From Atractiella rhizophila (taxonomy: Eukaryota): a stretch of 25,612 bases of DNA. The stretch spans positions 62,001-87,612 of the forward strand of contig MU271335.1 of assembly GCA_021432655.1 (NCBI GenBank), read 5' to 3'. Each line of letters opens with the position of its first letter. Positions within the stretch are counted from its first letter, which is position 1. A program made the position numbers and the translations under genes. The notes beneath the pieces are model-generated. The model was not told where the DNA came from. It was given only the letters and a program-made list of their open reading frames with translations, and ran no database searches. Positions 1-25,612 of this stretch are shown here, in pieces.

Positions 1-191
1 GTACTCCAACTACCCATCCCATGCAGCTGCGACAGGACTCTTCGACCTCCTCGATCAACAAACCTCTGCCTTCCCCACCAGCACAGCCCAGAAAAAAACG
101 CAACGAGATCCAACCACCTACTTTGAAGTATCTGCCAGAAATGAGTACCGTGTTCGTAGAGATGATTCGACACCAATTACGACCTCGTTGA
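1..191 (+). CDS. 3' end (partial last exon) of a PX-associated domain protein, YPR097W/Lec1-like
   Basis: Frame from base 3 reads ...TPTTHPMQLRQDSSTSSINKPLPSPPAQPRKKRNEIQPPTLKYLPEMSTVFVEMIRHQLRPR* (TGA 189-191). The upstream part is recoverable by complementing 9319-10107: WLFEDLHVILRMATRLRDKEQMIALIFE/GSTSELLKDIITMFYEPLAKVYKAANISDCIYDLQMFVNDLIKTVE...QQFIDLISRH...FVHQVH. I recognise this as the C-terminal region of fungal YPR097W-family proteins (family call from memory, no search run). Confidence 0.72.
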   Translation, partial: TPTTHPMQLRQDSSTSSINKPLPSPPAQPRKKRNEIQPPTLKYLPEMSTVFVEMIRHQLRPR

Positions 192-375
192 CTTTCTGTA
201 TCGTTACTATATTATCTTCCTCTTCCAACTTCCTCTCAGCATTTGCCCTGCTTATCTTGTTCAGTATAGACCGAATGCGAAATCTGGTATATAATGTGAA
301 GTTGAGACCTTTGTGTTTCTATATAATTGTACACTTTATAAGAACAGGAAATTGAAGATCTGGCATATTGATGAC

Positions 376-1329
376 TTATTTTTTCTTCCATTCTGCCCGA
401 TCAAAACCTGGGTCGTTTCCAAATTCGTTCGCGTGATTCAGAACCCAATTTGCAACTTCCTTGCACTGTGCCACCCAAATATTATCCCGCTTCTTGGACA
501 CGTATTCAACAACATCCTCCATTACTTGTATTCTCTCTTGGTCCAGCTGAAGAAAAGGGTGGAACAACAGGGCTAGATAGCCGCCGTCTCGTTCTATCTC
601 GTCCACACGCTTGAAAAGACGCTCACGCAAAACAGCTGGAGACAAGGGTTCTTCAGAATCACCCCTTCCCACTCTCAACGGCTTCGTCGACTCCATGTAG
701 AAGTAGGCGTCAATATTATCCCACTGAAAAGGTAGAATAGCGATTCCCTCCATGACGGCGGGGCGGTCTGCAGCTGGGCTGAGATAGGTCATGCCTTGCT
801 CCCGCATGAGACGCAACGTGTGGTCAGTGATGAGACCGCCAGGCGGCCGAAAACCGTAATATTTGATACCTATGCTTCCAGCACTGGAAATGCTCTTCTG
901 CAAATTGTTGACCTCGGTTTTGAGATCGAGGAGGCTCCACACTTCGTGCTGATAGGCATGAAAAGCGACTTCGTGGCCAAGCGATTGAACGTGTTTGAGA
1001 GCGTCGGGGTAGTGTTCGCAGTTCCAACCTTCGACGAAGTAGGTGGCTAAAATAGAATGACATTGCAGAATATCCTGATCTGTCGTTAAGTGCGAAATTC
1101 CGTCAAGCGAAAGCACGAACCAGCATGCGAGGCAACTTCTCCGCGACAGAATAATGTGAGCCAATTGGCTTCTCAGACGGCCAGATGCCTCGATGCAGAT
1201 CAGCCGCCTCTCCCATATTATCCTTCGTAATTTCGTCATTTGGGTAATAGATATTGGAACACCACATACCATAGTGATAGTAACGCATCCCCTCTTACCA
1301 TCTGGCCAGATAAAGCTCTTATTGGACAT
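376..1329 (-). CDS. Polysaccharide deacetylase (carbohydrate esterase family 4 / NodB-like, PuuE/HP0310-type), 3 exons: 1329-1270, 1222-1121, 1074-376; 286 aa
   Basis: GT-AG introns at 1269-1223 (47 nt) and 1120-1075 (46 nt). Spliced product MSNKSFIWPDGKRGCVTITM/DNMGEAADLHRGIWPSEKPIGSHYSVAEKLPRML/DILQCHSILATYFVEGWN...GHEVAFHAYQHE...GFRPPGG...LALLFHPFL carries the CE4 motifs (TMDN, ATYFV, HxxxH, RxP, LxH). No hydrophobic signal peptide is apparent. Confidence 0.85.
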   Translation of the reverse strand: MSNKSFIWPDGKRGCVTITMVCGVPISITQMTKLRRIIWERRLICIEASGRLRSQLAHIILSRRSCLACWFVLSLDGISHLTTDQDILQCHSILATYFVEGWNCEHYPDALKHVQSLGHEVAFHAYQHEVWSLLDLKTEVNNLQKSISSAGSIGIKYYGFRPPGGLITDHTLRLMREQGMTYLSPAADRPAVMEGIAILPFQWDNIDAYFYMESTKPLRVGRGDSEEPLSPAVLRERLFKRVDEIERDGGYLALLFHPFLQLDQERIQVMEDVVEYVSKKRDNIWVAQCKEVANWVLNHANEFGNDPGFDRAEWKKK

Positions 1330-6942
<5,613 letters not shown>

Positions 6943-7460
6943 CTGAAAGTATGCGTTCCTTAATCTCACTTTTATGAACTTGTTGACCTGTTTGCACGGG
7001 CATAGAATGCGTCCATGAATTGCTATGATGCAATTCATCGCACCACCCTCTAAGCTACTTACTACTGAGAGTTTGGCATGTCAATGCAGTCGAATTTTCC
7101 TGTCAGACCGAGGGCTGGTGTAAGGCTCCAGACCAATTGCATTCTTCGAAAGAACCCGCATACCTGCTAATGCTATTAGTAAACCATTCGCAATTCCCGC
7201 TGACCATTGGTGTGACGAGCAAGTGAATTTCACCTGCCTGAGATCTCCAGCGCTTTGCCACATCAGATCAAAACTGATTACTGTTGACCTTCATGGTCTA
7301 GTCTGGCAAGTTACAACTATTGCACTGCAAGTGGAATATTACATAGATGTAGGTAGGAACCTGGTTGAACTGCCACAACCAACCAATCATGGGAAGTAGT
7401 AGCTTTCTTTGTGGCAGATACAGTTTCTGAAAGAGTGAGGTGATGACACTTTTTGACTTT

Positions 7461-7607
7461 ACCTCCTCCAACAGTTAAGAGGTATCCTCCAGTAAACTGG
7501 CCAGTATCCTTGTAACCTGCAAAGTCTGCATCACAATATGACTTAAATGGCTGAGAGATATCAAAGTCTGAGGCAGAATACTCAATGCACATGTCTTGGA
7601 TCCCTTG
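7461..7607 (-). mobile_element. Relic of a Ty1/copia RT-RNase H junction, truncated by the adjacent LTR
   Basis: Translates IEYSASDFDISQPFKSYCDADFAGYKDTGQFTGGYLLTVGGG, homologous to IEYSATGFDLKQPFHAFCDADFAGCKDTGRSTGGYLLKIGNG at ~24200-24330. Homology stops at the LTR start (7608). Confidence 0.85.
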
Positions 7608-7763
7608 CGTTGGATTAGGTGTTATATTGTTGTCTTTGTGTGGTCAGCCACCTTTGCTGTGTTTACTCACTTCATAGTTTCTCCCTAGAGGGCAGTCTTG
7701 GTGGTCATCATCTTTGACCACCAACTCCTGTCCCCTAGCTTCATCCAGCCTCCATTTCTCTCA
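7608..7763 (+). repeat. 5' LTR of copia element A (156 bp; starts CGTTGG instead of TGTTGG, ends ...CTCTCA)
   Basis: Directly followed by a TGG-starting PBS. Colinear along its length with the LTR read backwards at 23474-23313 (TGTTGGATTAGGTGTTATAT...TGTGTGGTCAGCCACC...GGTCATCATCTTTGACC...CTGTCCCCTAGC...CA). Confidence 0.85.
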
Positions 7764-7776
7764 TGGTAGCGAGAGC
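7764..7776 (+). promoter_or_regulatory. Primer-binding site TGGTAGCGAGAGC
   Basis: Abuts the LTR-terminal CA and starts with TGG (complement of tRNA CCA). The first 8 nt match the yeast initiator-Met-type PBS TGGTAGCG. The cognate tRNA is not in the window. Confidence 0.7.
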
Positions 7777-7972
7777 AGTGGCTAGGGATTGACAGATCAG
7801 TTGGAATTTCAATTTTCAATATTGCCACCCACTTAGTTGAAAATTTTGACCACCCAGCCACTCTTTGTCCAATCGATTCAAGACTTTGGGATCATAATCG
7901 AGGCTCTCCTACGGACGGCCCTATCCCCCATTTGACGAAGATCAGACGATCCAAACTCGGAATTTTATCGCC

Positions 7973-9310
7973 ATGTCCGAAGAAAGTAAAATTTTGATCA
8001 CCCCCCTTGGAGAGAAGAACTATGGCACCTGGTGCATCGATATGCAAGCTGAATTAATGCGAAAGGGGCTATGGGAGATTGTGTGTGGAGAGGAGAAGAA
8101 GCCTGTTGATTTGAAGGAGGGAAAGCAATGGGAAAAGGAGCGCTCTAAAGCGGCAGGAATGCTGTTCCTCAGCCTGGAATCCTGGTGTCTGTCATTCAAG
8201 ATCCAGTCAAGATCTGGTCCACCCTTCAAAAAATCCATCAGCAGAAGAGGTCTTCCACATGTTTTCCCTAAGGACCCTGCTTGCTCTCCAGAAGAAAGCA
8301 GATGAATCCCTGGTCACCCTCTGTGCCAGAAGCGACCAGCTGTTTCCGGACTTCACCAATACACTCTCCAAGGACTATTCCCTCAATAATTTGAAGGAGG
8401 ACTTTCAATCCTTCGCTCTCATTCGCTCCTTAGGCCCAGAATACGCTAGTTTTTGTCCAGAACATCACCCTTATGACCTCCACTGACCTCCAATCGATCA
8501 AACAAGCATTCTACTCGATCCAAGCCACCAAGAACTCAGAGGAAGCCATCTCCAACAATCAAATGGCAAATCAGGCATCCAGCAGCAACAGAGGACGAGG
8601 AGGATGGCATCCCAGAGGTGGCAGAGGTGGTGGAAGAGGAGGAACTCGAGATTTTTCGCAACCTGAGTGCAACTACTGCCACAGGAAGGGCCACTTCGTC
8701 TCCCATTGTCCAGAAACCCCTATTGGACGCAATAGGATCGAACTAGACAAGTACAGGACGAAGTATGGGAAGCTGGAAGAAGCAAAGGAAGCTCAAGTGG
8801 ATGGGGAAGGGTCAGAATTCGTTGGGGAGACCAGTTATGCAGCGGTAGATGATGCCATTAGTTGCCAGAAAGCTGGGACTGACTGGCTTATCGATACAGG
8901 GGCAACTTCATCAATGACCCCACACCACCAATTCTTCAAATCCTATCGAAAACACGTTGTACCCATCAGAGCTGCTAATGGAGAAGTGATCTGGTCAACT
9001 GGGATTGGAGAGGTGGTAATTGAGGCAAAAATTGGAGGATAAAAAATTGATGAAGGTCACCATTCAAGATACCCTACACGTTCCCAAGCTTTGTAGCAAT
9101 CTGCTATCCGTTTTCAAGCTCACTATATTCAAGAACATGACTGTCACTATCACTGGGAACAAAGTACGCTTCCTCAAGGACGGAAATCTCTGTTTTACAG
9201 CCACAGTCGACCACAGGAGAGGAACCATGAGTGCCATCATTGATGAAAGAACACTCATGGCCTCAGAATTCGTTGCACACGCCTCCACTACCACTCTAAA
9301 CACTTCCCTG
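7973..9310 (+). pseudogene. Frameshifted copia gag-protease polyprotein
   Basis: Fragments in different frames: PLGEKNYGTWCIDMQAELMRKGLWEIV (gag N-terminus), CNYCHRKGHFVSHC (CX2CX4HX4C knuckle), WLIDTGATSSM (aspartic protease), LHVPKLCSNLLSV. Frame breaks near 8182, ~8255, ~8460 and ~9040. Confidence 0.88.
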
Positions 9311-9318
9311 TGTAAGGA
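9311..9318 (-). repeat. Terminal 8 bp (TGTAAGGA on +) of the 3' LTR of a nested, oppositely oriented copia element 'B'; last correctly written bases of the left contig
   Basis: The complemented copy (19416 onward) continues TGTAAGGA-TCTGAGGCTAGG...CTAACA followed by a PPT, which shows these bases are an LTR end. Confidence 0.7.
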
Positions 9319-10298
9319 GGACCGAAAAACTTCTGAATGTACAGTAAGACGCTTACCGCTGAGCAAATTCCCTGTTCCTCGTTTACTAGCGGGAGTATAA
9401 ACTCCAAACACTGGGAAAAAAGGTTTTCGCGCACTAGATTTCGAATCTCATCCCTAGATGTAGCCTCGACGACTTCCTGTAATAGTGTTACAAAATGCTC
9501 GGTGAACGTTTCCAAATGTTCCGACGGTTGTAAAGTCTAACGTAGATACTGGAGGTCTACAAACAGTTACTGGACTAGTTTTGCCACCTTCTCCGGCTCT
9601 TGCGGTCACAAAGGCTAGGGTCCTTCCAACAAGTTGTCAAATAGCTAAATTAAAGAGCTGTAAATGTTCGACCCATATTAAAACAGGTGGTCCACGTGCG
9701 TTTTCCTCTTCTAGACAAGCTGTTGAATTACCGTACCTATGTCGAAAAGTAGCTAAAGCACGCGCTACCTGAAGGACTGTTCCAATGTAACCTTACCGAC
9801 GAGGGTGTGCCGCCGCTCCTCTCCCGGTTGCAGTAGCGTCTTCAACTGGTCTAATAGCTAATAGTATCCTTTGAGTTCGAAAACGCTCGGTTCTTCGATC
9901 GAGCGCCGCTCTCCGTACGGCGCCTGGCGTTAGTTCTGCTTTGACGGAAACAGAGACCTCAAAACTCGTTAAACGTGTAACCTCGTTAACGACCGCTGCA
10001 GCTCCTGCGAGTTCACCTTCTGAAAAGTCTCTCGCTGAGCCTTCTACTCCGACTACAGTGCCTCAGGAGTCTACTCCTCCTCAAGGTGTGCGGTTGCAAA
10101 GATCTAGCATGAGGTTGATGGGTAGGGTACGTCGACGCTGTCCTGAGAAGCTGGAGGAGCTAGTTGTTTGGAGACGGAAGGGGTGGTCGTGTCGGGTCTT
10201 TTTTTGCGTTGCTCTAGGTTGGTGGATGAAACTTCATAGACGGTCTTTACTCATGGCACAAGCATCTCTACTAAGCTGTGGTTAATGCTGGAGCAACT
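9319..10298. other. Complement-only copy of the last two exons of the PX-associated gene (non-coding as written)
   Basis: The complement reads an open frame with a 48-nt GT-AG intron (9405-9452) and runs into the sequence of window bases 1-191. Confidence 0.9.
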
Positions 10299-10482
10299 GA
10301 AAGACATAGCAATGATATAATAGAAGGAGAAGGTTGAAGGAGAGTCGTAAACGGGACGAATAGAACAAGTCATATCTAGCTTACGCTTTAGACCATATAT
10401 TACACTTCAACTCTGGAAACACAAAGATATATTAACATGTGAAATATTCTTGTCCTTTAACTTCTAGACCGTATAACTACTG

Positions 10483-11438
10483 AATAAAAAAGAAGGTAAG
10501 ACGGGCTAGTTTTGGACCCAGCAAAGGTTTAAGCAAGCGCACTAAGTCTTGGGTTAAACGTTGAAGGAACGTGACACGGTGGGTTTATAATAGGGCGAAG
10601 AACCTGTGCATAAGTTGTTGTAGGAGGTAATGAACATAAGAGAGAACCAGGTCGACTTCTTTTCCCACCTTGTTGTCCCGATCTATCGGCGGCAGAGCAA
10701 GATAGAGCAGGTGTGCGAACTTTTCTGCGAGTGCGTTTTGTCGACCTCTGTTCCCAAGAAGTCTTAGTGGGGAAGGGTGAGAGTTGCCGAAGCAACTGAG
10801 GTACATCTTCATCCGCAGTTATAATAGGGTGACTTTTCCATCTTATCGCTAAGGGAGGTACTGCCGCCCCGCCAGACGTCGACCCGACTCCATCCAGTAC
10901 GGAACGAGGGCGTACTCTGCGTTGCACACCAGTCACTACTCTGGCGGTCCGCCGGCTTTTGGCATTATAAACTATGGATACGAAGGTCGTGACCTTTACG
11001 AGAAGACGTTTAACAACTGGAGCCAAAACTCTAGCTCCTCCGAGGTGTGAAGCACGACTATCCGTACTTTTTCGCTGAAGCACCCGGTTCGCTAACTTGC
11101 ACAAACTCTCGCAGCCCCATCACAAGCGTCAAGGTTGGAAGCTGCTTCATCCACCGATTTTATCTTACTGTAACGTCTTATAGGACTAGACAGCAATTCA
11201 CGCTTTAAGGCAGTTCGCTTTCGTGCTTGGTCATACGCTCCGTTGAAGAGGCGCTGTCTTATTACACTCGGTTAACCAAAGAGTCTGCCGGTCTACGGAG
11301 CTACGTCTAGTCGGCGGAGAGGGTATAATAGGAAGCATTAAAGCAGTAAACCCATTACCTATAACCTTGTGGTGTATGGTATCACTATCATTGCGTAGGG
11401 GAGAATGGTAGACCGGTCTATTACGAGAATAACCTGTA
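10483..11438. other. Complement-only copy of the polysaccharide deacetylase gene
   Basis: The complement matches 376-1329 apart from a few substitutions and two +1 homopolymer insertions (~11070, ~11084). Confidence 0.95.
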
Positions 11439-12000
11439 ACACCAGCTTTCGTCCACCAGCTCGAGAGGTCAAATCCTTATCGCTCGGAACCGGTCGTTTG
11501 AACGGAAGGCCGCGAGGTAGGGGTCGAAGGTAAAGCCGACTTTCCATAAAGGTTCCCTCCACTACTCTTACCAATTCGACCTGTCGTTAAGTGTGGACTA
11601 TATAATGTGGAGTTATCGGCACTTTACAGCTTACAGGTACACATATTACTCGTTCTATCGTGCGTCCATTATTCTCTAGAATCACGGTCCCGGTGTCGTC
11701 TATCTAAGCACTAGCCCTAAGTGGTACTCGTACTAGCCAGGCTTGGACTGTGGTCTTACTCGGTCTTACTTAGTCTGTTAACATAACTAGGAAGAGAAAA
11801 GAACAGATGAAGGGCGAGCTCTTCTTATGCAATGACATAGGTCGCAGTAGATGTAGGAATGGACGGCGAACTTGCAGAAAAACGTCAACTGGCGGACGAC
11901 TAGAGAACAAGCTAGCAAGCTAGTGAACGGTCGATCAACTTGCGGAAGATGCAACAATATTGCCACAGGGAATGGACTGACGTCTTGACCTAAGCCTTTG

Positions 12001-15000
12001 TACTCGTGGTATAGTAAGTATCTATAAGAGAGTTTTTGCGTCACATAGGCGCACCCTGCGCTGAACGTCTGAGTGTAATAGCTTTGTGAAAATCTCGAGT
12101 TTTGAAGCGCGATACAGGAGTATTGTCTGTGTTTAGAACTCCCTATGCAAAGGGAGAAGGTTGACGGTTTAGAAGAACAGAAGGCGTATGGTGGACCCCT
12201 TTTGAGCTTTACGTCTTCTGTCTTCCTCCTTTAGCTCCTAACCTACGACGTCTTACCAACGTGCTCTCTGCATCATTAATAGCGAGAACCTCCTCCTCAC
12301 CAACCTCTGGAGCAGCCTAAACACCGACGGTGGAAGTACGCACCTCGTGCAAAGCACGTTCACGGATGTTGTGACGATCGTTACCACCTGTCGTCATAAC
12401 CACCCTTCCACGCGGTTAAACGGGAGCAGCTAGGTGAGTCAAATAGCAAGATAATCTGCCGTCAACTGTGAGGAGTGCCTTTCTTAAACTAACCCTCGAA
12501 AACCGTCGGTCTTATGTAGAAGTAACTATAGTTCAAAGAGGTCTGGGACGGGTTCTCCCTCGATTAGTTGCCAGAACGCCTCCACTAATTCCGTACATGT
12601 GGAGACATGAGCTGCAATAAGCGAGTGCAGAAGCATCTGACGGCGATAGGCCCTGCGACGAGTCAAGTATTTAGATCTTAGTTTACAAAGTCTTTAAGAT
12701 AGATAATGATGCCCGCGAAGGTTAGTTAGAAGCGGAGTTCAGCAAGGGTGACGAGAAAATTGGCGCTAACTTTCAAGATAACGATAGTTTAGAGTGTAGC
12801 AATGCTTCCTACTCGCGCTTTGGCCCGAGGCCTTAGATCAGTTAAAACCCGTGTGTTAGCCCGTACGCTAACTTCGACAAGAGCGAGGTCTCTACGAAGT
12901 GCCTCTTACGCACTCGTATCCCTACCAGAATCTTCGAGTCCATAGAGCACGATACCCTTAGGAGTCGTCACCCCGACAGCCTGCGGACCTCTCTACAGAC
13001 TTCCGAATGCCAGAAGGGTAAAGCGAGCTACTAGGCTCTCACTTTGTTCGGGAGTTCTACTCTCCACGACAAGAGCGACCGGTCTTTGATGAGCTGTAGT
13101 ACTTTGACCTATTCTTCTTAAGCCCATTGGTGTTTTTTTAGCAGGACGACAGTCGTTATCCTCTCTGGATGCTCCTTGCTCGATGGCAACAGGGACTACT
13201 ACAATAGGAGGCGTATGAGAGTGGCAGGCAGAAAGAGTGAGGATGCCCTGGAGGTTTTCGTGCGGAGCATTACTCGTGCGGACCTAGCTTTAGCTAAAGG
13301 TTAGCTCGGAACGACGACCGCCGAAACCCCTCGCCTCTTACGGCTAACGTTTTGGACGACCGTAGCGTTCTATGCCGACAGTACTACCTGCCAGACAGAC
13401 GGTACCCACCCCGATGAAAAGCAACCCTTTTCTGACTCACGCCCCTCCTGCAGGATTAACACAGACCGCCGCCTCCCTACGAAGTCCATACTGGAATTTA
13501 GCAGCTCTCTGATACGGACTGGAGAAAGATCCGGGGCCGAGTTCCGTTTCTCTAAATAAACCCGTTACGCCCATGACGTCGTGCCAAGAATTGAAGTCAA
13601 CGGAGTAACTAGCGGAGACCACTTCGTAGATGTTGGGCCTGACAGGAGTGACCGTTACGAGCTTACTTTGTTGCTGGCTAACCAGGGAACCATCTTAGAG
13701 ACTTCCGATTACCGCCGCTGTATGTTAAAGAACTCTCAGGTCCGACGAACGGAGATAGGTATCCTTGTTGCCCAGAAGCGCCGCCCTTTTAGCTCGAGCG
13801 GCGGAGCTAGAGAAGCGTTATACAGAGAAGTTAGGAGTACCGCCGCGGCATACGGTTCCTTCTCTATTGGGAGCTTGAGTCGCCCCCTTCACACTATAGA
13901 GTTGGAATATAGCTATACTGGTAACGGTAGTACCGGTGGAAACCGCAATAACAACTCGCCCTCTTCAGACTCAGTCCGCTCGACGAGTTAAGGATGGCTT
14001 AGGGAAATCCTAGTATATCTTTAGGAGGCTGTATGCGTTAGCTCTCGCTACGGTCATCACGATGGATAGGTGAGCGGTAACGGCGATAATGCCCCTCGTG
14101 GACATGAGAGTTGTTGTAACCGAGCCTAAGGTACGTTCCTCTACGGTCCAAACGTTTTCTGCAAGAACTTGGCTACCCAACGTTTCAGGACGTTTGTAGT
14201 GTAAGGTGATGGCAGTGACCTGGCGGTTAGCCTTTTAACTTTCGAAACCGTTGGTAACTGTACCTTGACTACTGCCTACGGAAGAATTGCCGTCGTCACA
14301 ACCGCCGCCACCGTTTGCTCAGAGAAGGTAGAAGGGCACCACTGCGGGTCCATGGGTGGAGCTGCTCCTAATGTCCATATCGGTTAGTTTCCCATTTCCT
14401 TACGTTGGCATAGGATCGATACTTTTGGCTCAATCGCTTCAAACCGCAGTAAAGGTTGCTTGAGGGCCTGCCTTAGCTTTAGTAACCGGTCTCGGGGGTT
14501 AGCAACAACCGTCCTGTCAGGCAAAAAACAATGCTGCTGGTAGCACATCGTTACCGAAAGTCACACGAACGGACGCGGTCTTGCCTCGAAGTCCATGCGT
14601 ATCTCCTTTTCCTGACACAAAGATTCTGGACCGGGCCAACCACCCTGCTAGAACCGTGGTCTAAAGTTCAGTTTCAGCGGCCACGACTCTCTTTAGGCTG
14701 GAGTCAACTCTTACCCGGTGTACGATCCCTTTGTTGCATGCTAGGCCTACGGTCGCAACACAACTAACCCTACGCCCCTCGCCCTTTCTGGTGTCACCCT
14801 TCCGACCCACGACGACGAGAGGCCGCCGGCAAACACCTACGTCTGGTCATGAAACTCCTGTTCGAGTACTTGCACTCTCTTAAACAATTTGAAGTACCGA
14901 CCTTCCTTAAAGCTCAGGTTCTTCAAGCGGACAACTTCCTTACAAATAGCTAGTACCCCTTCCCAGTGCAGTAGAGGGAACCACCTCCTCACCAACTTTC

Positions 15001-17045
15001 GCTTCTCCGGGCTGCTTAGAACTAATTAATACGTTGTTCTAAACCAGGACACCATGTGCAGTCTGCTCTGTAGCCGCTCTAATAGCTAAAAGACTTGTCA
15101 CTTTGGGTATCCGGTAGGGAGCCGCTCGGCGAATCTCTGTATACCCTTGCAGCCTTTGGCACCGATCTTTTGACGAGGTGAACACTGCAGTAATCAATAC
15201 AACCTCCCTTTTGTTAAGGTAGATCGCAACGTAGACAGTCGGGAGTTGTCGAATAGCTGCGACTTCCGAACGGACACTTGGAATGTCTCTAAGTTAGTTT
15301 GCGACCGTTCCAGTAGAGGTTCCCGCCCCAGCTGATGTAGTGTTTAAAGAAGGCCGTAGAACAACCACTATTCAGTCTCCGCCAACTGGACTGGTTTTTC
15401 TTGAGGTCGAAATAACGAGAGTGAAAAGGACGCATAAGATTCCTAATGTTGCTACGCGGTAGCAGCCTATGCAATGTGCTTCAATGATAGCCTCAGCTGC
15501 GGCAGCTTGAGTCTCATCTAGACGAGAGCGGTTCACCCTTTTCGGGCTGATGCGGTGTGTAAGGAGGAGACCTGAAACACCGTTGTGTTAACCGACGCGA
15601 CTCTATAAGTCATGGGAATGGGTAGCACATATGGCAGGCTTGGGTGAGCGTTCCACCGTACAAGGGTCTGCTGCGGTACCGTCTTATGAAACTAGAAAAC
15701 TTTGAACCTTCTTCTAACCCTACGCTTAAGTAACTGTACCTTCAAGCTACCAGACTTGTACAGTACGTCCTTAAACAGCGACGGTTCCCAATAAGCTCTT
15801 AGTAACCAAGCACCGTACTAACCTGTCCGTTAAACTTTACCCTATCAGCCCTCCAAGCTCTCTCCAAAAAACGCCTAAAGACTTATACCTCTATAACAAT
15901 TTTAGCAAAGTTTCCGCTGCCTGCGCAGCCTGTTGTAGCTTTACGAATTGAAGGCATCAACCCGACGGCGAGCAAGCGGGTTCGGAGAATATAGCGACTT
16001 ATACCCAGAGCTTCCAGTTGAGAGTGCGTAGGAAACAGGTACAAAGTGCTAGCAGTGAGTAGGTGACGAAGGGTTGTTTCGGCGGGGTCCAGTCGAGTGT
16101 AAAAATCTCCAAGTCTTTCCTGAACTTGAACGACCGCTTTATGGGTTTTTCGCTAAGATAGAGAAGCCCTGAGGTTAGTTTGTCAGGTTTAGGGGTGAAT
16201 AGGTGTTATGACCTAAGGTCTCTGAGCCGAACGGTGTACAAATGCCTAACGTACTTACGCTGTGCCAAGTGCCTCTCCAGCCCTCGAACTAAGCAGTTGG
16301 GCTAAAACCGCCTCGAAGGCAGTGCTATGGCGTATTTCAGTCGTAATAGGGCGAAAACCTACTCCACTGTCCAGTACGATTTTGGTAACCACGGCACTTG
16401 TGCTAGTAGGGACACGTGAGTGCAAGGCCCTGTTTCGAAAATCCGCTGTTATGCCTAACCGACCCGTATCACTGAGACTAACTCCGAAGCTAAAACGGGC
16501 CAGTGACGTAGAGGGGCAGAACGTGCCGTGAACAGTAGCCACGACCACCTTGATCAGCTCGCCGTTAGATACGTGAAGTAGTCATACCCAAATTCGTGTA
16601 AATGAATAAGTTGGCATGTAACGTCGTACCGTAGAGCCAGAGATTGTCAAAGCTATTTTCGATGTTATAACAAGGAGAGCTGAGAAACTGGTCCAAAGGC
16701 TTACCTGGTGGGCGACAATAGTAGAGGTGCCAAGGACGAAGACGTGTCTGGTGACTTGCTAGAGCCAGGTGGGAATGCCTTCCTTAGCAATAGGGGAACA
16801 GCTATAAGCTGGCACTTGTTCCGCCTCAACATTATCTATACCGGATAGCTGGCAAATAATGCGGTAACGACCTGGAGTATTTTTGTCGATCGCCAGACAC
16901 CCAAGGGCCATCGCCCTATCTTTAGGACGAGCTCGTTCCGAAGTTCGTCAAGGCTACGACCTGCCCTTTTGTAGGAGGGTTTGTGCGTTAGGCGGTTCGT
17001 CAAGACGTCCTCATGGTAGAACTCCTTGCCTGTAAACACTTAACT
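12001..17045. other. Complement-only copy of ARO1 (apparently a second allele)
   Basis: The complement matches 1899-6942 with scattered, mainly synonymous substitutions and one +1 homopolymer insertion at ~15866-15871. Confidence 0.96.
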
Positions 17046-17710
17046 GACTTTCATACGCAAGGAATTAGAGTGAAAATACTTGAACAACTGGACAAACGTG
17101 CCCGTATCCTACACAGGTACTTAACGATACTACGTTAAGTAGCGTGGTGGGAGATTCGATGAATGATGACTCTCAAACCCTACAATTACGTCAGCTTAAA
17201 AGGACAGTCTGGCTCCCGACCACATTCCGAGGTCTGGTTAACGTAAGAAGCTTTCTTGGGCGTATGGACGATTACGATAATCATTTGGTAAGCGTTAAGG
17301 GCGACTGGTAACCACACTGCTCGTTCACTTAAAGTGGACGGACTCTAGAGGTCGCGAAACGGTGTAGTCTAGTTTTGACTAATGACAACTGGAAGTACCA
17401 GATCAGACAGTTCAATGTTGATAACGTGACGTTCACCTTATAATGTATCTACATCCATCCTTGGACCAACTTGACGGTGTTGGTTGGTTAGTACCCTTCA
17501 TCATCGAAAGAAACACCGTCTATGTCAAAGACTTTCTCACTCCACTACTGTGAAAAACTGAAATGGAGGAGGTTGTCAATTCTCCATAGGAGGTCATTTG
17601 ACCGGTCATAGGAACATTGGACGTTTCAGACGTAGTGTTATACGGAATTTACCGACTCTCTATAGTTTCAGACTCCGTCTTATGAGTTACGTGTACAGAA
17701 CCTAGGGAAC

Positions 17711-19415
17711 GCAACCTAATCCACAATATAACAACAGAAACACACCAGTCGGTGGAAACGACACAAATGAGTGAAGTATCAAAGAGGGATCTCCCGTCAG
17801 AACCACCAGTAGTAGAAACTGGTGGTTGAGGACAGGGGATCGAAGTAGGTCGGAGGTAAAGAGAGTACCATCGCTCTCGTCACCGATCCCTAACTGTCTA
17901 GTCAACCTTAAAGTTAAAAGTTATAACGGTGGGTGAATCAACTTTTAAAACTGGTGGGTCGGTGAGAAACAGGTTAGCTAAGTTCTGAAACCCTAGTATT
18001 AGCTCCGAGAGGATGCCTGCCGGGATAGGGGGTAAACTGCTTCTAGTCTGCTAGGTTTGAGCCTTAAAATAGCGGTACAGGCTTCTTTCATTTTAAAACT
18101 AGTGGGGGGAACCTCTCTTCTTGATACCGTGGACCACGTAGCTATACGTTCGACTTAATTACGCTTTCCCCGATACCCCCTAACACACACCTCTCTTCTT
18201 CTTCGGACAACTGAACTTCCTCCCTTTCGTTACCCTTTTCCTCGCGTCCTTACGACAAGGAGTCGGACCTTAGGTGGGTCTTCCGAGTACACCACAGACA
18301 ATAAGTTCTAGGTCAGTTCTAGACCAGGTGGGAAGTTTTTTAGGTAGTCGTCTTCTCCAGAAGGTGTACAAAAGGGATTCCTGGGACGAACGAGAGGTCT
18401 TCTTTCGTCTACTTAGGGACCAGTGGGAGACACGGTCTTCGCTGGTCGACAAAGGCCTGAAGTGGTTATGTGAGAGGTTCCTGATAAGGGAGTTATTAAA
18501 CTTCCTCCTGAAAGTTAGGAAGCGAGAGTAAGCGAGGAATCCGGGTCTTATGCGATCAAAAACAGGTCTTGTAGTGGGAATACTGGAGGTGACTGGAGGT
18601 TAGCTAGTTTGTTCGTAAGATGAGCTAGGTTCGGTGGTTCTTGAGTCTCCTTCGGTAGAGGTTGTTAGTTTACCGTTTAGTCCGTAGGTCGTCGTTGTCT
18701 CCTGCTCCTCCTACCGTAGGGTCTCCACCGTCTCCACCACCTTCTCCTCCTTGAGCTCTAAAAAGCGTTGGACTCACGTTGATGACGGTGTCCTTCCCGG
18801 TGAAGCAGAGGGTAACAGGTCTTTGGGGATAACCTGTGTTATCCTAGCTTGATCTGTTCATGTCCTGCTTCATACCCTTCGACCTTCTACGTTTCCTTCG
18901 AGTTCACCTACCCCTTCCCAGTCTTAAGCAACCCCTCTGGTCAATACGTCGCCATCTACTACGGTAATCAACGGTCTTTCGACCCTGACTGACCGAATAG
19001 CTATGTCCCCGTTGAAGTAGTTACTGGGGTGTGGTGGTTAAGAAGTTTAGGATAGCTTTTGTGCAACATGGGTAGTCTCAACGATTACCTCTTCACTAGA
19101 CCAGTTGACCCTAACCTCTCCACCATTAACTCCGTTTTTAACCTCCTATTTTTTAAACTACTTCCAGTGGTAAGTTCTATGGGATGTGCAAGGGTTCGAA
19201 ACATCGTTAGACGATAGGCAAAAGTTCGAGTGATATAAGTTCTTGTACTGACATAGTGACCCTTGTTTCATGCGAAGGAGTTCCTGCCTTTAGAGACAAA
19301 ATGTCGGTGTCAGCTGGTGTCCTCTCCTTGGTACTCACGGTAGTAACTACTTTCTTGTGAGTACCGGAGTCTTAAGCAACGTGTGCGGAGGTGATGGTGA
19401 GATTTGTGAAGGGAC
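17711..19415. mobile_element. Complement-only copy of copia element A (LTR 17711-17866, PBS, gag-protease)
   Basis: The complement matches 7608-9310 with SNPs, an 11-bp deletion and a 16-bp insertion around 18246-18290. Confidence 0.93.
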
Positions 19416-19550
19416 ACATTCCTAGACTCCGATCCTCATCAACGACCAGTTATTACTCGTGGTTGTGAGGATCCGTCTTGATTTGATGTATCACTACTGA
19501 GTATACTCAGTATGCTCCGTCTACTGGTTTTGTTGTGTGATGTTGATTGT
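19416..19550. repeat. 3' LTR (135 bp) of nested copia element B, readable by reading the + strand backwards
   Basis: Backward reading gives TGTTAG...CTTACA (TG...CA, 5/6 inverted termini), preceded by polypurine tract AGGTGGGAG (19559-19551). Confidence 0.8.
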
Positions 19551-20130
19551 GAGGGTGGACCCGTCGGCAGAGAACTACGAGGGTGGTGGAGGTCTCTTAG
19601 AGGCTGGCTTAAACATGTTACATATGGGCCATATTTCGTCTTTCGTATAATCAAAAAGATACTTTTCTTCTCCTTTCAGGAGCGTGGCGAATGTCGCCAC
19701 AGAATATTGGGGTGTCTCCTCCTTTTCTAAAAATAACGCGGGGTATTGACGGAGTCTGTGAACCCATCCCCGCATTTGGGTAGTATTGAGCTTTGAACAG
19801 GTGTGACCGCTGACCTTCACGGAACCATTCCTCCAGGCAACCGTATAACTGTGGACCTGTCTTCTGACCTGACTAGAACGGGTAGAGTTGTTGTAGGGAC
19901 TCGGTTATTTTCGCTTCCAGGTCCACAAAGTAAGCTGGTACCACGAGTCCCAAGAACCTATGGACATCTCGCGACGATGACAGACACTTCTCCCCTCATC
20001 CTGGAACTCCTCGCTTCGGTTAAAGAAGATTTTCTAAGGAATCGGTCTGCTGAAGAACCGGTCGACTCTGAGGACTCTGTATAAGGCAAGGCATCACTTA
20101 TCTAGCTCCTAACAAACGACGAGGTTACTG
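19551..20130. mobile_element. PPT, 3' UTR and RNase H of copia element B (backward reading)
   Basis: Backward translation EYVSGVSAGQEVVWLRNLLEEIGF...TPLFTDSSSALQVSKNPEHHGRMKHLDLRFYWLRDVVE...NMPTDLLTKALP...FRVMMGLRPYPSV*, stop at 19755-19753. Confidence 0.9.
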
Positions 20131-20449
20131 CGGAACGGATGTCCATCAACTTCGTGGAACAGTATGACGAAGTCGCACGATCGATGGCAACTAGCTAGGT
20201 CAACTCCCTCTGCTGCGTGAGGGTCAGACCTGCTTGATGCAGGTGCGCCATAGACGAAAATACCTGGTGGTCACGATTTCTGACCCTAAAGAACCTAGGT
20301 AACAGATTCGTCAGATGAGCTTACCGGTTGCTTACTAACCTGTTCACTCAGCGTAGAAACGCAAATCCTCCAGGATTTGCAGAAGTGATGACGGATACAG
20401 GATCAAGCTTGCATCCTTACATTCCGAGTCAAACCTGTAGGGGATGAGC

Positions 20450-20810
20450 GAGACTTCAATCGTGAGACGATAGCCACAAGTTTGAATGATAGTAGCTTTC
20501 TCACTGACCCTGGTAGTACATCCTCGTGCTCATGCGAGATTAGTTCCGGCTTTTAGGCGTCTATAGTGACGCTTGGTCAACTAGTGTCCTCTCCTTCGTA
20601 CGTGACGTTTGAGTAACTATCTTCATTGTGAGTACCGGAGTCAAGCAACTGTGCGGAGGTGGGGGAGGTCCTGCGAAGGGTGACCGTATCTGCTCAATGG
20701 GTTATATTTAGTCCTTCTATATTTCGATTACGACTTCTTCCCTTCTCCCTTACTAGGACCTGCGTCTGCTGCGAAGACCGCGATAGACACTTCGGGATGT
20801 AGCTCCTCCT
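20450..20810. mobile_element. Error-rich copia protease-to-integrase linker fragment (complement reading, same orientation as element A)
   Basis: The complement resembles 9090-9310 (e.g. CACAGGAGAGGAA, AACACTCATGGCCTCAG, CACGCCTCCAC) and continues TGGCATAGACGA (WHRR). Many indels. Confidence 0.65.
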
Positions 20811-20839
20811 CGTCGTGAACCTAGACGCGAAGATTGACC

Positions 20840-23312
20840 GAGTCCCTGTGCCCATCCCCGCATTTGGAGTAGTGGGCTCTGAAGACGTGGACCGCTCACC
20901 TTACGGACGTTCTGGAGGCAATGGTTAACTGAATGGCCTAACTACGACCTGACTAACGTTTAGAGTCTCTTTACTACCCAGACTCGGTTATTCGCTTCGG
21001 TCCACATAGTCCGTCGGTACCCCGCGTCCTATTTTGGACATTCGCGACGAAGACCCCCAATATTCTCTCGAAATCCGGGATACTCCTAGTGGGATGACGA
21101 AGAATCTCTAAGGATCGATTCTACTGAAGAACCACTCGACACTGAACTGTACTACGGCATATCTGTCTCGTTGCTCCCTAACGTCAAATGACGAGGTTGA
21201 CTGACGAGGCAACGGATAGACCTCCTCTATCGGAGGGCATCTTGCAAGCGTCTATAGGACCGTGGGTCGTTTTCGCCGATAGTGTCTTCCGCACTTTTCC
21301 GACGTACTCCAGTTTTGGTCAACGTCTTATGAGTCTACGGATTCAAGACTCGGTGGAGACTCCATAGCATCTTCTACGAACCGGTGAAGGTGTCACGAAG
21401 ATCGGACGCGATCTCTCCATCACAGACTCCTGTCTCTGAAACGTACTCGTTATAGACCGGTGCTCCATACTCTACCGGATAGTTACATAGTAGTATCTCG
21501 GTTGTTGCAACGACATTGGCTATCACGCGTAGGTCGTAGTCTACAAGAAGGAAACAGACTCCTGTCAGGACGAAGCGACTCTGGCACCGGTTGCGACTCT
21601 CCTCACTCCTTGTCCGAACGTCAGTAGGTAGACGACCGCATATCTCTTCCAGGAATTGTATGACGAGGACTAGGTTGGTGTAGTAAGAACGCGAAGGATA
21701 GTGCGGATTATGCTTGGGGTTCATTCTTAAGGCACCCAGGTTCCAGAGATTCGAACTTAGCGAAGGGGTTGAGGGAGAACTTCAGGAGGTGTCGTGGGAA
21801 CCTGCACGATCGTTAGCATTATAGTAGGTGTTTCTGACCCTGTTCGTGGAACTGCAGGGGTAAGCTCATTTAGGTGTCTGATCTCAGCGAGAACTGGAAG
21901 CATTTAGGGTATCTTTGCTCAAGGAATAGGCTCAAAGAAGACGGTAACTGTGGGAGGAACGGAACACGGTATCTACCGGAACTAATCAGAACTCTTGCAT
22001 GAGACCTCCTGGGACTCCTACTGGAAGACCGACGAACACGTATCTGGAGACGTAGGTATAGCGGTAAATTCTTTCGGCATCTCTATAGGTGACTGAGGTT
22101 GAGGTACAGGTTCTGTGTTCGTTCGCTTTCCTAGCAGGATTCACAGCGGGTAAACTGGCAGCTACGCTTTCATAGTTTCATCAGTTTAGGTCCCGCAACC
22201 CTCTTCGGGAACTACTGCTTAGATCGGAATATTGCGAGTTAACTCGGTAGGCTGAAGAAGAACTAGCGTTTGTGGGTAGCCCTGGGTTACTAGAAACGAG
22301 GGAATCCGCCGAAATGGTCTTGGGTTGAGAACAACAGGTTCACGCGAACTTGGAGGAAGTGGCAGCGGAGTACGGTCACAAAGCGTAGAGCTCAGAAGTA
22401 CCGAGGACTTATACTGACCCCCTGAGATAAGGACGCAGGGACGTAGATACCGTACGAGTCACTGTTCGTATTTCGGTATGAGGTAGCGAAGTCCGAGGCA
22501 TTCTTACGTTGTAAGGAATTGGTCGTAACGGTTCGAGCAGGAGTCTCGAGAGCAGCACACCAACCCCGTCGAACCCACGGATCTTGACGCTGACCACCAG
22601 AGGAGATGGCAAGTCCTATTTCAGAATTCACACTGTCCACCTCCTCGACGTCGCCGTCCTCATCAGCTAGACCTCCGCAGTAGACCTCACCTAGACCGCT
22701 AAGACTCACAGATCCGTGGTACTAATCAGGACAGGTTCCCAGAGAGACTCCAATGTTCTGCTCACCACCACAATGATCCGGCAAGTCCTCGACGACACCG
22801 CCCAGACCTCGAAGAAGGGAGAGAACGAGGCGAAGGACTAGAAGAGGAAGTAGGGACTTCCGCAAGTTTTGCTAAACCTCTCTAAGGTTCGGGACTCCAG
22901 AGACTGCAAGAGGAGACACTAGGTAGGTATAAGAGGAACGGTAACAGAAGATCGCTTTAGGATCCGCTCCTCGCCGTCCTCGTGATGAGACAAGTAGAGG
23001 GTGGACTAGGACTGCAAGAAAGGTGAGCAGGTCACCAGGGACTCCGCCAAGGTTGCATAAGAAGAAGGAGGATTGAAACGTCTCGTAGAGAGAGAGTAGT
23101 TTAAACCGTTATAGAGCTCGTATCTGGAAGAATCTGTGACCTAGGGTCTTGAGGGTGGGAAAGCGACCATCTCATACGGATATTTCCGCGTAAAAGCTCA
23201 TACTCCTAGGAGTCTGACACGGATCAAAGCACACGCCTTAGATACCATCTATCCTTCGACTCCCTCTGAGACTTTGCGCTTTATCACCGGTTAACGGACT
23301 ATGTTAAAGCTA
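20840..23312. mobile_element. Error-rich copia pol segment 'C' (RNase H - RT - integrase C-terminal region; backward reading)
   Basis: ~20840-21170 repeats the RNase H of 19760-20100. ~21170-22645 is a noisy complement of 24163-25612. 23100-23210 read backwards gives DPHTRKCAFIG and GWEFWDPVSKKV, the conserved copia post-integrase (SH3-like) motif. Confidence 0.8.
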
Positions 23313-23474
23313 ACCTCTTAGCCTCACGAACTACCTCGATCCCCTGTCTCTAACAACCAGTTTCTACTACTGGCGGATGTGACGGGGGATCCCCCGATTT
23401 TGAGGCTTCACTTCGTTTGTTTTGTCTCCACCGACTGGTGTGTTTGTAGGTCTTTATATTGTGGATTAGGTTGT
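23313..23474. repeat. 3' LTR (~162 bp) of copia element 'D', same LTR family as 7608-7763 (backward reading)
   Basis: Backward reading TGTTGGATTAGGTG...ATTCTCCA, preceded by PPT AGGTGGGAG (23483-23475). Confidence 0.82.
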
Positions 23475-24137
23475 GAGGGTGGACCCGTCGGCGGAGAACT
23501 CGAGGGTGGTTTAGGCTCTTGGTAGGTCTTATTGGTAAAACTACTGGTTACTTCGAGGGTGGCTTACTTCCGTAGTACTTCACTGTAGTGTGTTTCTTTT
23601 GTATAATCAATTTACAGATTTTGGTCATCTCTCTAGGAGCATGGCGAATTCGCCGCAGAATATTGGGGGTCTTCCTCCTGTCTCAAAATAACGCGGGGTA
23701 TTGACGGAGTATGTGAACCCATCCCCGCGTCTGGGTAGTAAAGAGCCTTGAAACATTGCGGTCGTTTGGCCATTCCAGGAACGACTGCTGCAGGACGTCC
23801 GTTTCGTTAGCGGTCCCGTCTTCCCGACCCCACTACTGAGGTCTAGATACTTGCAATGGGTTATCGCTTTAGGAAGAGAACTTCGTTGTCCCTCACCAGG
23901 TACTTCTAGACTCGACTAGGAAGGATTTTAAAGGCAGAGGGATAAGAGACGTCGGAACAACATCTAGGATACAACGAAGGGTCGATACGTCCCGAGTGTT
24001 TATCCCAGTCCTCGCAGAAGACTCAGGTCCCAGTAGGGGAAGTGTTCAGGAGAGAAGTCGTAAGCGAAATATAGAAGTTCTAAGTTCACCCGTTCAGAAG
24101 ATACGGTGTCCCTTCGCAAGTCCCCCACCACCTCTGT
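23475..24137. mobile_element. Internal part of copia element D: integrase N-terminus joined directly to RNase H C-terminus and 3' UTR (backward reading)
   Basis: Backward translation LNASLWHRRLAHLN...ICEPCIAGKQHR...GRISSDLHGPLPVASREGFRYWVTFID, then at ~23844 switches to RNase H tail sequence ending KFREMMGLRPYPSV* (stop 23710-23708). The 3' UTR is homologous to 19551-19755. Confidence 0.8.
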
Positions 24138-24162
24138 NNNNNNNNNNNNNNNNNNNNNNNNN
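24138..24162. other. Assembly gap, exactly 25 N
   Basis: A run of 25 N separates the complemented block from normally written sequence. Confidence 1.
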
Positions 24163-25612
24163 GCAACGAGGGATTGCAGTTTGCTGCTCCAACTGACTGC
24201 TCCGTTGCCTATCTTGAGGAGATAGCCTCCCGTAGAACGTCCAGTATCCTTGCACCCAGCAAAATCTGCATCGCAGAAGGCGTGAAAAGGCTGCTTGAGG
24301 TCAAAACCAGTTGCAGAATACTCAATTCCTAAGTTCTGAGTGCCTTTGAGGTATCGTAGAAGATGCTTGGCCGCTTCCCAGTGCTTCTTTCCTGGGTTAG
24401 AGAGGTATTTTCCGAGGACAGAGACTGCATGAGCGATATCTGGACGAGTAGAGATGGCCAAGTACATCATAGAGCCAACAACGTTGCTGTAAGGGATTGT
24501 GCGCATTTCTTCGTGTTCTTCCTTTGTCTGAGGGCAGTCCTGCTGCTGAGACCGTGTCCAACGTTGAGAGGAGTGAGGACAGGGTTGCAGTCGTCCATCT
24601 GTTGGCGTTCTAGGAGGTCCTTAACATACTGTTCTTGATCCAACCACATCATTCTTCGCTTTCTATCCCTCCTAATACGAACCCCAAGTAGGAATTCCGT
24701 TGGTCCAAGGTCTCTAAGCTTGAATTGCTTCCCTAACTCCCTCTTGAAGTTCTCCACAGCACCCTTTGATGTGCTAGCGATCGTAATATCATCCACAAAG
24801 ACTGGGACAAGTACTTTGATGTCCCCCTTCGAGTAAATCCACAGACTAGAGTCGCTCTTGATCTTCTTAAATCCCATATCAACGAGTTCCTTATCGAGTT
24901 TCTTCTGCCATTGACACCCTCCTTGCCTTGTGCCATAGATGGCCTTGATTAGCTTGAGAACGTACTCTGGAGGACCCTGTGGATGACCTTCTGGTTGTTG
25001 TGCATAGACCTCTGCATCCATATCGCCATTTAGGAATGCCGTAGAGATATCCACTGACTCCAACTCCATGTCCAAGACACAAGCGAGCGAAAGGATCGTC
25101 CTAAGTGTCGCCCATTTGACCGTCGATGCGAAAGTATCAAAGTAGTCAAATCCAGGGCGTTGGGAGAACCCCTTGATGACGAATCTGGCCTTAAAGCACT
25201 CGATAGAACCATCCGACTTCTTCTTCACCGCAAACACCCATCGAGACCCAACGATTTTTGCTCCTTTAGGCGGTTTGACCAGAATCCAACTCTTGTTGTC
25301 CAAGTGAGATTGAATCTCCTTCACTGTCGCTTCATGCCATTCCTTCGCATTCGGGCTTGCCATCGCTCTTGAATATGACTGAGGGACCTCTACTCCTGTT
25401 GCTGCACTCTTGGCATGCTCTGTGACAAGCATATAGCCATATTCCATCGCCTCTGGCTCGGTGAGTATGTCACATTCCTTTACCAACATCCCAAGCTCGT
25501 CTGTTGACCCTTCGTCGTTGTTTTGAGGTGCTTCTGGGGTCCTAAATCTGTCGACAGGTCGTCCTCTACTCGTAGAATAAATTCTTGAAGGCCTGGTGAC
25601 AGGGGGAGGTGT
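24163..25612 (-). mobile_element. Ty1/copia pol fragment: reverse transcriptase and start of RNase H, one frameshift near 24545; frame open to the window edge
   Basis: SRWVFAVK, FKARFVIKGFSQRPGFDYFDTFA, VDISTAFLNG, KAIYGTRQ, VFVDDI, LRDLG...FLLGVRI; after a frame change, PYSNVVGSMMYLAISTRPDIAHAV and FCDADFAG...RSTGGY...VSWSSKLQ. Confidence 0.95.

Follow-up and report, generated by a model that had tools for sequence, protein, structure and literature searches.

The 14.8 kb between positions 9319 and 24137 of the window (the whole stretch of 25,612 nucleotides from Atractiella rhizophila contig MU271335.1 that was analysed) very probably represent an in-silico strand error in the assembly and not DNA of the organism. 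The earlier note had read this block as a software strand error and no biological system, a reading supported by the coding signal that reappears upon complementing, by the natural alleles found in the block at ten out of ten sites and by the assembly features at which the block begins and ends.

A complement-only copy of the left part of the window

When positions 10108-19423 were complemented, left unreversed and globally aligned to window positions 1-9318, 9248 of the 9290 aligned columns were identical (99.55%), confirming the relation claimed in the earlier note. The two sequences differ by 42 substitutions (27 transitions and 15 transversions) and by 15 gap events amounting to 54 bases in total. 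Complement-only matches form an unbroken chain from 1->10108 through 9318->19423 in which the longest exact stretch measures 1021 bases, and complement-only 20-mers were found at offsets 10102 (3740 of them), 10103 (2132), 10107 (885), 10108 (776), 10109 (436), 10112 (245) and 10105 (152). The earlier note gave offsets of 10102-10109; the measured range extends from 10102 to 10112 and is accompanied by a 30-base piece at 10092. As controls we used 20 mononucleotide shuffles and 20 first-order Markov simulations, as well as a comparison of 1-9318 with itself. The longest complement-only exact match arising by chance measured 12-17 bases in the shuffles and 13-18 bases in the Markov simulations, and that of the self-comparison measured 14 bases. 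Base skews reverse sign between the copies, both for GC (-0.130 at 1-1000 and +0.120 at 10001-11000) and for AT (+0.162 at 8001-9000 and -0.152 at 18001-19000).

The block as written gave no blastn match to the two flanks on either strand at E<=1e-5, and a search of the window for direct and inverted repeats returned no family joining the block to 1-9318; classification as a direct or inverted repeat was rejected on these grounds. Once complemented, the block matched the flanks by blastn over 9343 columns at 98.9%. The copy is accordingly invisible to two-strand self-alignment, as had been claimed, and emerges when 9319-24137 is complemented and aligned to the scaffold, the check that had been proposed. 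Formally, 10108-19423 is a complement-only repeat of 1-9318, preserving the same order after exchange of A<->T and C<->G.

Gene content before and after complementing

In the correctly written left copy (1-9318), a polysaccharide deacetylase is encoded on the minus strand at 376-1329 (317-aa ORF; Pfam PF01522, E 1.8e-13) and a pentafunctional AROM/ARO1 protein on the plus strand at 1899-7193, in several exons (ORF pieces 1899-2354, 2791-3390 and 3457-6942). ARO1 carries the Pfam domains DHQ_synthase, DHQS_C, EPSP_synthase, SKI, DHquinase_I and Shikimate_dh and matches the AROM protein of PDB entry 6hqv with an E value of 1.9e-299; the five shikimate-pathway domains lie on consecutive ORF pieces, which identifies it as a pentafunctional AROM. 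The presence of both genes within the copied stretch, stated in the earlier note, is thereby verified. Logan contigs of four public runs (X1, X2, X3 and X4) were placed on 5613-25612 at a likeness of at least 90. In contigs of X4 and X3, a joint 6949->7007 reveals a 57-nt ARO1 intron (about 6949-7005); an mRNA-like contig with an A24 loose end places the poly(A) end of the gene near 7193.

From 7479 to 9318, on the plus strand, lies the 5' part of a Ty1/copia retrotransposon comprising gag, a zinc knuckle and the Pol beta-barrel (Pfam, tblastn). DUF4219/Retrotran_gag_2 was located at 7973-8305 and Pol_BBD together with zf-CCHC_2 at 8473-9042, and residues 15-474 of the copia polyprotein P0002 match within the segment by tblastn. 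This segment is repeated DNA, over which the summed depth of public contigs climbs from about 255 to thousands, and the long single-copy contig of run X1 stops at 7540.

Part b of the block (10108-19423) is the complement-only copy of 1-9318, with the deacetylase, ARO1 and the 5' part of the copia element. It is preceded by part a (9319-10107) and followed by part c (19424-24137), neither of which has a near-identical partner within the window. As the partner copy is absent from the window, their mirrored state is deduced from ORF and trinucleotide evidence for both parts and from polyprotein evidence, part a being recognised by ORF and trinucleotide signal only. The longest stop-free frame of part a measures 218 codons after complementing versus 89 as written, and a 269-aa ATG-ORF of the complemented sequence (9489-10298) extends into the copy of window positions 1-191. 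Part a most likely corresponds, judging from this continuity, to 789 bases that belong to the left of window position 1. The tail of this ORF (62 residues, positions 3-188) matched no Pfam family at E<=0.1. The complement of part c is a copia element on the minus strand, matched by six of six polyproteins in tblastn, with its C-terminal part at 19771-20088, RT/RNase H at 21162-22433 and the integrase region at 23844-24137, and is colinear with the right flank of the block. The Retrotran_gag_2, Pol_BBD and RVT_2 domains, along with polyprotein HSPs that are colinear across the flanks and the complemented block, assign these retrotransposon sequences to the copia class.

Complementing restores the coding signal of the block. 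ATG-ORFs of at least 100 aa in 9319-24137 increase from 1 as written to 18, and stop-free frames of at least 100 codons from 9 to 31. The block as written does contain 67 stop-free frames of at least 60 codons; the 'dozens of fake ORFs' of the earlier note therefore hold for short frames but not for ATG-ORFs of at least 100 aa, of which there is just one. Stop-type trinucleotides are outnumbered by their mirror images in the real flanks (ratios of 0.72 and 0.76) but exceed them in parts a, b and c of the block (1.32, 1.39 and 1.06, respectively). As tblastn queries, six full-length copia polyproteins taken from public protein data yielded no HSP against the block as written versus 38 HSPs against its complement, three for each query in part c and three to four for each in part b. 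Only the complemented block shows genes, likeness to retrotransposon proteins and a depletion of stop codons.

Alleles, block limits and origin of the block

In the single-copy stretch 5613-7540, ten of the ten substitutions between the left copy and the complemented block correspond to alleles of normally oriented public contigs. The block alleles at these ten sites are carried by contigs of X1 and X2 and mostly by those of X4; contigs of X3 are mosaic for both allele sets, indicating that both are natural variants. At position 6068 both letters are present in X2 (depths 232.8 of 367.3), and the 16-base insertion of the block copy behind 8182 also occurs in X4. Because ten of ten sites match public alleles, the block holds an authentic natural haplotype on the wrong 'strand', and the two copies diverge where natural polymorphism exists, in the manner of a false haplotype duplication. 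One-base homopolymer indels, on the other side of the ledger of differences, are in five of five cases extra bases in the block copy. One of them, a +T at 15866, disrupts the ARO1 frame; the X1 contig, with 0 gaps relative to the left copy over 5613-7540, lacks it. Judged by these alleles and indels, part b is a second natural haplotype with a few added homopolymer insertions.

The left limit of the block coincides with the end of the left-copy match (9318), within the copia repeat, and the right limit with a scaffold gap of 25 N (24138-24162) that follows the block immediately, so that both limits fall on assembly joints, as is expected of an artefact. At the 9318/9319 joint there are no N's, and exact overlaps span just 0-3 bases in all four block orientations. 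Such overlaps give no clue to the orientation intended for the block, and with neither N's nor an overlap present, neither simple overlapping of ends nor scaffolding with N padding accounts for the join.

The right flank (24163-25612, minus strand) is a highly repeated copia reverse-transcriptase region, with a 381-aa open frame leaving the window (Pfam RVT_2, E 1.5e-58); it is matched by residues 898-1379 of P0002 in tblastn and is covered by public contigs. Complemented 21169-22644 resembles 24163-25609 at 87.5% by blastn and at 91% of aligned columns in 44 blocks, with nearly as many transitions (61) as transversions (65). On this degree of divergence, the right flank may be another transposon copy from a different place than the complemented sequence, or alternatively a collapsed repeat consensus.

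Public-run contig depth was 0 in 21 of 21 bins over 9615-23621 in all four runs, although contigs cannot prove absence; bins over 5613-9614 and 23622-25612 were covered in X1 and X2. This zero cover is what the artefact reading predicts, and we did not count it as evidence. Two contig joints, 7724->25529 in X1 and the opposite-strand joint 7763->24391 in X1 and X2, were considered as bridges over the block and rejected, their short sides consisting of 45-55 letters of high-copy transposon DNA; we take them to come from further copies of the element.

Most probably, real sequence of the same locus, either the second natural haplotype or sequence from a second, more indel-prone data source, was pasted between the contig end at 9318, inside the copia element, and the remaining 25-N gap. 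The pasted sequence would begin 789 bases ahead of window position 1, cross the deacetylase and ARO1 genes and enter the retrotransposon cluster, and its letters were very probably complemented without reversal of the string on output; reversing the opposite strand without complementing it would produce identical text. The error step may have been scaffolding or gap filling with a sequence spanning the left copy, the gap and the right flank. The gap-filling step is our inference from the layout; the program responsible is likewise conjectural, and the intended orientation may have been either direct or inverted. A sound gap fill would have supplied about 1.7 kb between the two flank matches, versus the 14.8 kb inserted, so that more than one fault, or a hand-made script, would be needed. 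A further counter-point is the modest likeness, 87.5-91%, between the right flank and the corresponding complemented sequence.

That the block is real DNA, copied in parallel orientation beside the original by a process yet to be described, would agree with the presence of the text in the deposited scaffold and with a left joint devoid of N's. To our knowledge, however, all template-directed DNA synthesis is antiparallel and yields only direct or reverse-complement copies, and no known polymerase, transposase or repair pathway makes copies of this kind. The block moreover contains a natural haplotype whose alleles occur, at ten of ten sites, in normally oriented contigs of public runs, its homopolymer insertions resemble sequencer errors and it runs from a contig end inside a repeat to an assembly gap, all of which makes an authentic parallel copy exceedingly improbable. 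Practically nil is the probability of a chance or low-complexity likeness, or of a direct or inverted repeat wrongly described, given a 1021-base run against at most 18 bases in 40 controls, the absence of two-strand blastn matches as written and the absence of a repeat family.

The error could instead postdate the assembly, having arisen during format conversion, database handling or preparation of the window, with a deposited scaffold that is sound or ordinarily duplicated (a tandem or inverted haplotype). Complementing or reversing a single segment would yield the same text in whatever program it took place, but the limits of the error are a contig end in a repeat and a 25-N gap, and because these are assembly features, a per-contig orientation step such as scaffolding or gap closing fits better than later handling of the record; we regard a post-assembly origin as very unlikely. 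An error made in the assembly itself thus remains our preferred explanation, and it is conceivable, though somewhat doubtful, that the block is one instance of a systematic bug and that assemblies from the same pipeline hold further complement-only blocks. We rank such a bug as far likelier than an authentic parallel copy. If it exists, complement-only blocks elsewhere would be invisible to standard two-strand quality control.

In biological terms, 9319-24137 holds no new element. For data quality, detection of the block is a useful control, as 14.8 kb of added text have no match in ordinary searches, mimic a novel, gene-free orphan sequence, may seed spurious short ORFs and keep purging tools from recognising that the ARO1 and deacetylase locus is duplicated. 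Strand-handling errors go unnoticed because standard aligners check direct and reverse-complement relations only. Among the matches listed by a literature search for wordings of the 'complemented but not reversed' kind, no title or abstract opening concerned assembly errors.

Comparison with known systems

In a mirror repeat, a sequence is followed by its own reverse on the same strand; such repeats can form H-DNA, and natural ones are short homopurine/homopyrimidine tracts. The block shares with them a relation that antiparallel copying does not yield at length, and reads like the opposite strand of the true sequence written backwards, but the relation on the written strand is complementation and not reversal, and the DNA concerned is ordinary gene DNA. 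The complement repeats reported by REPuter are typically a few tens of bases long, about the level of chance. As in this class C, the second copy described here is a base-by-base complement in the same order; unlike them, it covers 9.3 kb with whole genes, where chance accounts for 12-18 bases. In one plastome study, forward, reverse, complement and palindromic classes are distinguished by REPuter and complement repeats are the rarest, occurring in 6 of 23 plastomes (PMC9603726). All four class names occur together in 211 papers of the literature searched.

Gap-closing tools of the PBJelly type leave a 25-N placeholder in gaps that were extended yet not closed. The block similarly shows a 25-N gap right after an insert that shares sequence with the left contig and extends into the gap, as well as homopolymer insertions. 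A correct fill of this type would contain the missing part only, on the right strand. The default minimum gap setting of the PBJelly utility is given as 25 in PMC6240028; the 25-N gap may be taken as a weak hint to PBJelly, and no result ties the window to a particular program.

The layout also resembles a false haplotype duplication ('haplotig'), in which both haplotypes of a heterozygous locus are placed one after another: the two copies are about 99.5% alike and differ mainly by substitutions, with a transition excess (27:15), at sites that vary in public runs, and they adjoin at a contig end inside a repeat, next to a gap. Haplotig duplications, however, are direct or reverse-complement and are caught by self-alignment and purging tools, whereas the copy described here is complement-only and escapes two-strand blastn.

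Complement-only relation of the two copies

The window of 25612 bases contains one N run only, 25 N at 24138-24162. We searched for 20-mers shared between the window and its own complement, with the string order left unreversed, and found that the matches cluster at offsets 10102-10112, so that the clustering claimed in the earlier note stands with a slightly wider range than the proposed 10102-10109. The chained matches continue without a break from 1->10108 through 9318->19423 and include an exact run of 1021 bases, the longest such match expected by chance being 12-18 bases (40 random controls); copy A (the correctly written 1-9318) yields 14 bases at most against its own complement. Upon global alignment of copy A with complemented 10108-19423, 9248 of 9290 columns were identical (99.55%), the copies differing by 42 substitutions (27 transitions and 15 transversions) and by 54 gapped bases in 15 gap events. 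The segment 10108-19423 is thus, as had been claimed, a complement-only copy of 1-9318. The relation had also been said to escape ordinary two-strand alignment, and indeed the block as written (9319-24137) gave no blastn match to the flanks on either strand, nor did a search of the window for direct and inverted repeats detect the relation between the copies. Complementing the block before aligning it, as the note had advised, produced a 9343-column blastn match to the flanks at 98.9%. The signs of GC skew and AT skew are opposed between matching kilobases of copy A and the block.

Extent of the mirror writing

Because it aligns globally to copy A after complementing, the central part of the block (part b, 10108-19423) is mirror-written, that is, complemented without reversal. 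The right part (part c, 19424-24137) has no near-identical partner and was therefore compared to outside proteins, six full-length copia polyproteins picked from a list of 120 proteins related to the reverse transcriptase of the right flank. With tblastn, these gave no HSP wholly inside the block as written versus 38 wholly inside the complemented block, each polyprotein contributing three in part c and three to four in part b. The arrangement of these HSPs makes complemented part c a minus-strand copia element, with the C-terminal part at 19771-20088, RT/RNase H at 21162-22433 and the integrase region at 23844-24137, all on the minus strand. Complemented 21169-22644 is colinear with the right flank at 24163-25609 (identity 87.5-91%, the blastn value being 87.5%; 44 alignment blocks, with transitions about as frequent as transversions), the match beginning at the flank's first base past the gap. 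The right-flank contig may be another transposon copy, or many copies collapsed into one consensus.

In the left part (part a, 9319-10107), the six polyproteins gave no HSP, either as written or complemented. Its longest stop-free frame measures 218 codons complemented versus at most 89 as written, and lies within a 269-aa ATG-ORF (9489-10298) extending into the copy of window 1-191. For stop-type relative to mirror-image trinucleotides, the ratio amounts to 1.32 in part a, 1.39 in part b and 1.06 in part c, versus 0.72 and 0.76 in the real flanks. This internal evidence of frame and ratio suggests, less firmly than for part b, that part a is mirror-written. The whole block holds one ATG-ORF of at least 100 aa as written versus 18 when complemented. 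A 168-aa ORF (24000-24506, minus strand) crosses the 25-N gap from real to mirror-written sequence and is spurious, a product of the join.

Genes and natural alleles of the locus

Copy A carries a polysaccharide deacetylase gene, assigned by domain content (376-1329, minus strand), and AROM/ARO1 (1899-6942, plus strand) in three ORF pieces with all five domains present (E 1.9e-299 against the solved AROM polypeptide 6hqv). Public sequencing runs X1-X4 were compared as assembled contigs (Logan). In mRNA-like contigs of X4 and X3, 57 bases at about 6949-7005, directly 3' of the TGA (6940-6942) closing the long ARO1 ORF, are spliced out, with GT..AG ends once the cut is shifted one base leftward. 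Since contigs skip these bases and one mRNA-like contig ends in a poly(A) run (A24) after 7193, the 3' end of ARO1 apparently contains or adjoins an intron, with polyadenylation near 7193.

Repeated DNA starts at about 7479; the single-copy X1 contig ends at 7540, with a jump in summed contig depth from about 255 to thousands. A copia-type gag with zinc knuckle and Pol beta-barrel is encoded at 7973-9042, and a copia RVT_2 reverse transcriptase in the right flank (24163-25612, minus strand). The copia family (7479-9318 and 24163-25612) is very abundant in X1 and X2, where summed contig depth lies at roughly 2,500-37,000 (X1) and reaches about 105,000 (X2), the single-copy ARO1 depth of about 255-417 being far below. 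Many of the variant letters between copia copies are transitions. Of the relatives listed for the reverse transcriptase of the right flank, those that are named come from Agaricomycetes (P0043, P0053, P0057, P0060, P0061, P0079 and P0097; genera Taiwanofungus, Armillaria, Mycena, Trametes and Hohenbuehelia), with one exception, P0025 from an arachnid. By transposon similarity, this gives a hint of a basidiomycete source for the window.

Two nuclear haplotypes are common in basidiomycetes. The share of copy A words was 0.75 in X1 and X2, 0.64 in X4, 0.35 in X3 and 0.20 in X5, and contigs of the first four of these runs were compared over 5613-25612. Exactly 10 substitutions separate copy A from the complemented block within single-copy 5613-7540; a long X1 contig has exactly 10 letters unlike copy A, all 10 at these sites and identical to those of the complemented block, with which X2 contigs also agree, as does X4 where covered. 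The 16-base insertion of the complemented block behind 8182 was found in an X4 contig. X3, which bears a different organism label, has the copy A letter at 6096 and 7082 and the block letter at 6068, 6513, 6519, 7010 and 7077, and X2 has both letters at 6068. Given the mixed X3 and the two letters in X2, alleles at these sites vary from one public run to another, and both allele sets are natural variants.

Five one-base homopolymer indels distinguish the two copies, the additional base lying in the block every time, which suggests that the block was derived from an indel-prone data type. One is an extra T in a T5 run of the mirror-written ARO1 (15866, copy-A position 5764), which breaks the frame, so that after complementing two ORFs of 739 and 367 aa take the place of the 1126-aa ATG-ORF found at 3562-6942 of copy A. 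The X1 contig, with no gaps, lacks this T and agrees there with copy A. Its natural alleles, and homopolymer insertions that copy A lacks, show that the block was not computed from copy A but holds a real second sequence of this locus, carrying a few insertions of the sequencing type.

Origin of the block

No replication, repair or transposition process is known to make complement-only copies, and we give virtually no credence to the block being real DNA as written. The written text, the complement of the true sequence, is the same string as the reversed opposite strand, so that either half of an incomplete reverse-complement operation yields it; the sequence gives no sign of which half occurred or of the intended orientation. 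Terminal overlaps at the 9318/9319 joint are only 0-3 bases with the block in all four forms. The block sequence covers copy A completely, starting 789 bases further left, extends 1745 bases beyond its end and from there on keeps the order of the right-flank contig up to the window end and further, a layout suggesting one sequence spanning the whole region. The block also occupies the exact position of the scaffold gap, of which 25 N remain. Gap-closing tools of the PBJelly type can leave 25-N placeholders. A passage in PMC6240028 gives 25 as the default minimum gap setting of the PBJelly utility. Because of the spanning layout and the position at a gap with 25 N left, we favour a scaffolding or gap-closing step, which would have inserted the spanning sequence whole, with a strand fault. 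Against a gap-closing step, a well-behaved gap filler would insert only about 1.7 kb, and the right flank is only 87.5-91% like its block counterpart.

Among the matches listed by a literature search, no title or abstract opening gave an account of such an assembly error. The complement-only block was a correct and useful quality-control catch of low biological interest; in effect, the locus has been falsely duplicated and the duplicate concealed by a strand error. Repeat classes named for REPuter in a passage of PMC9603726 include the "complement repeat", to which the block formally belongs, but at hundreds of times the length of examples at chance level.
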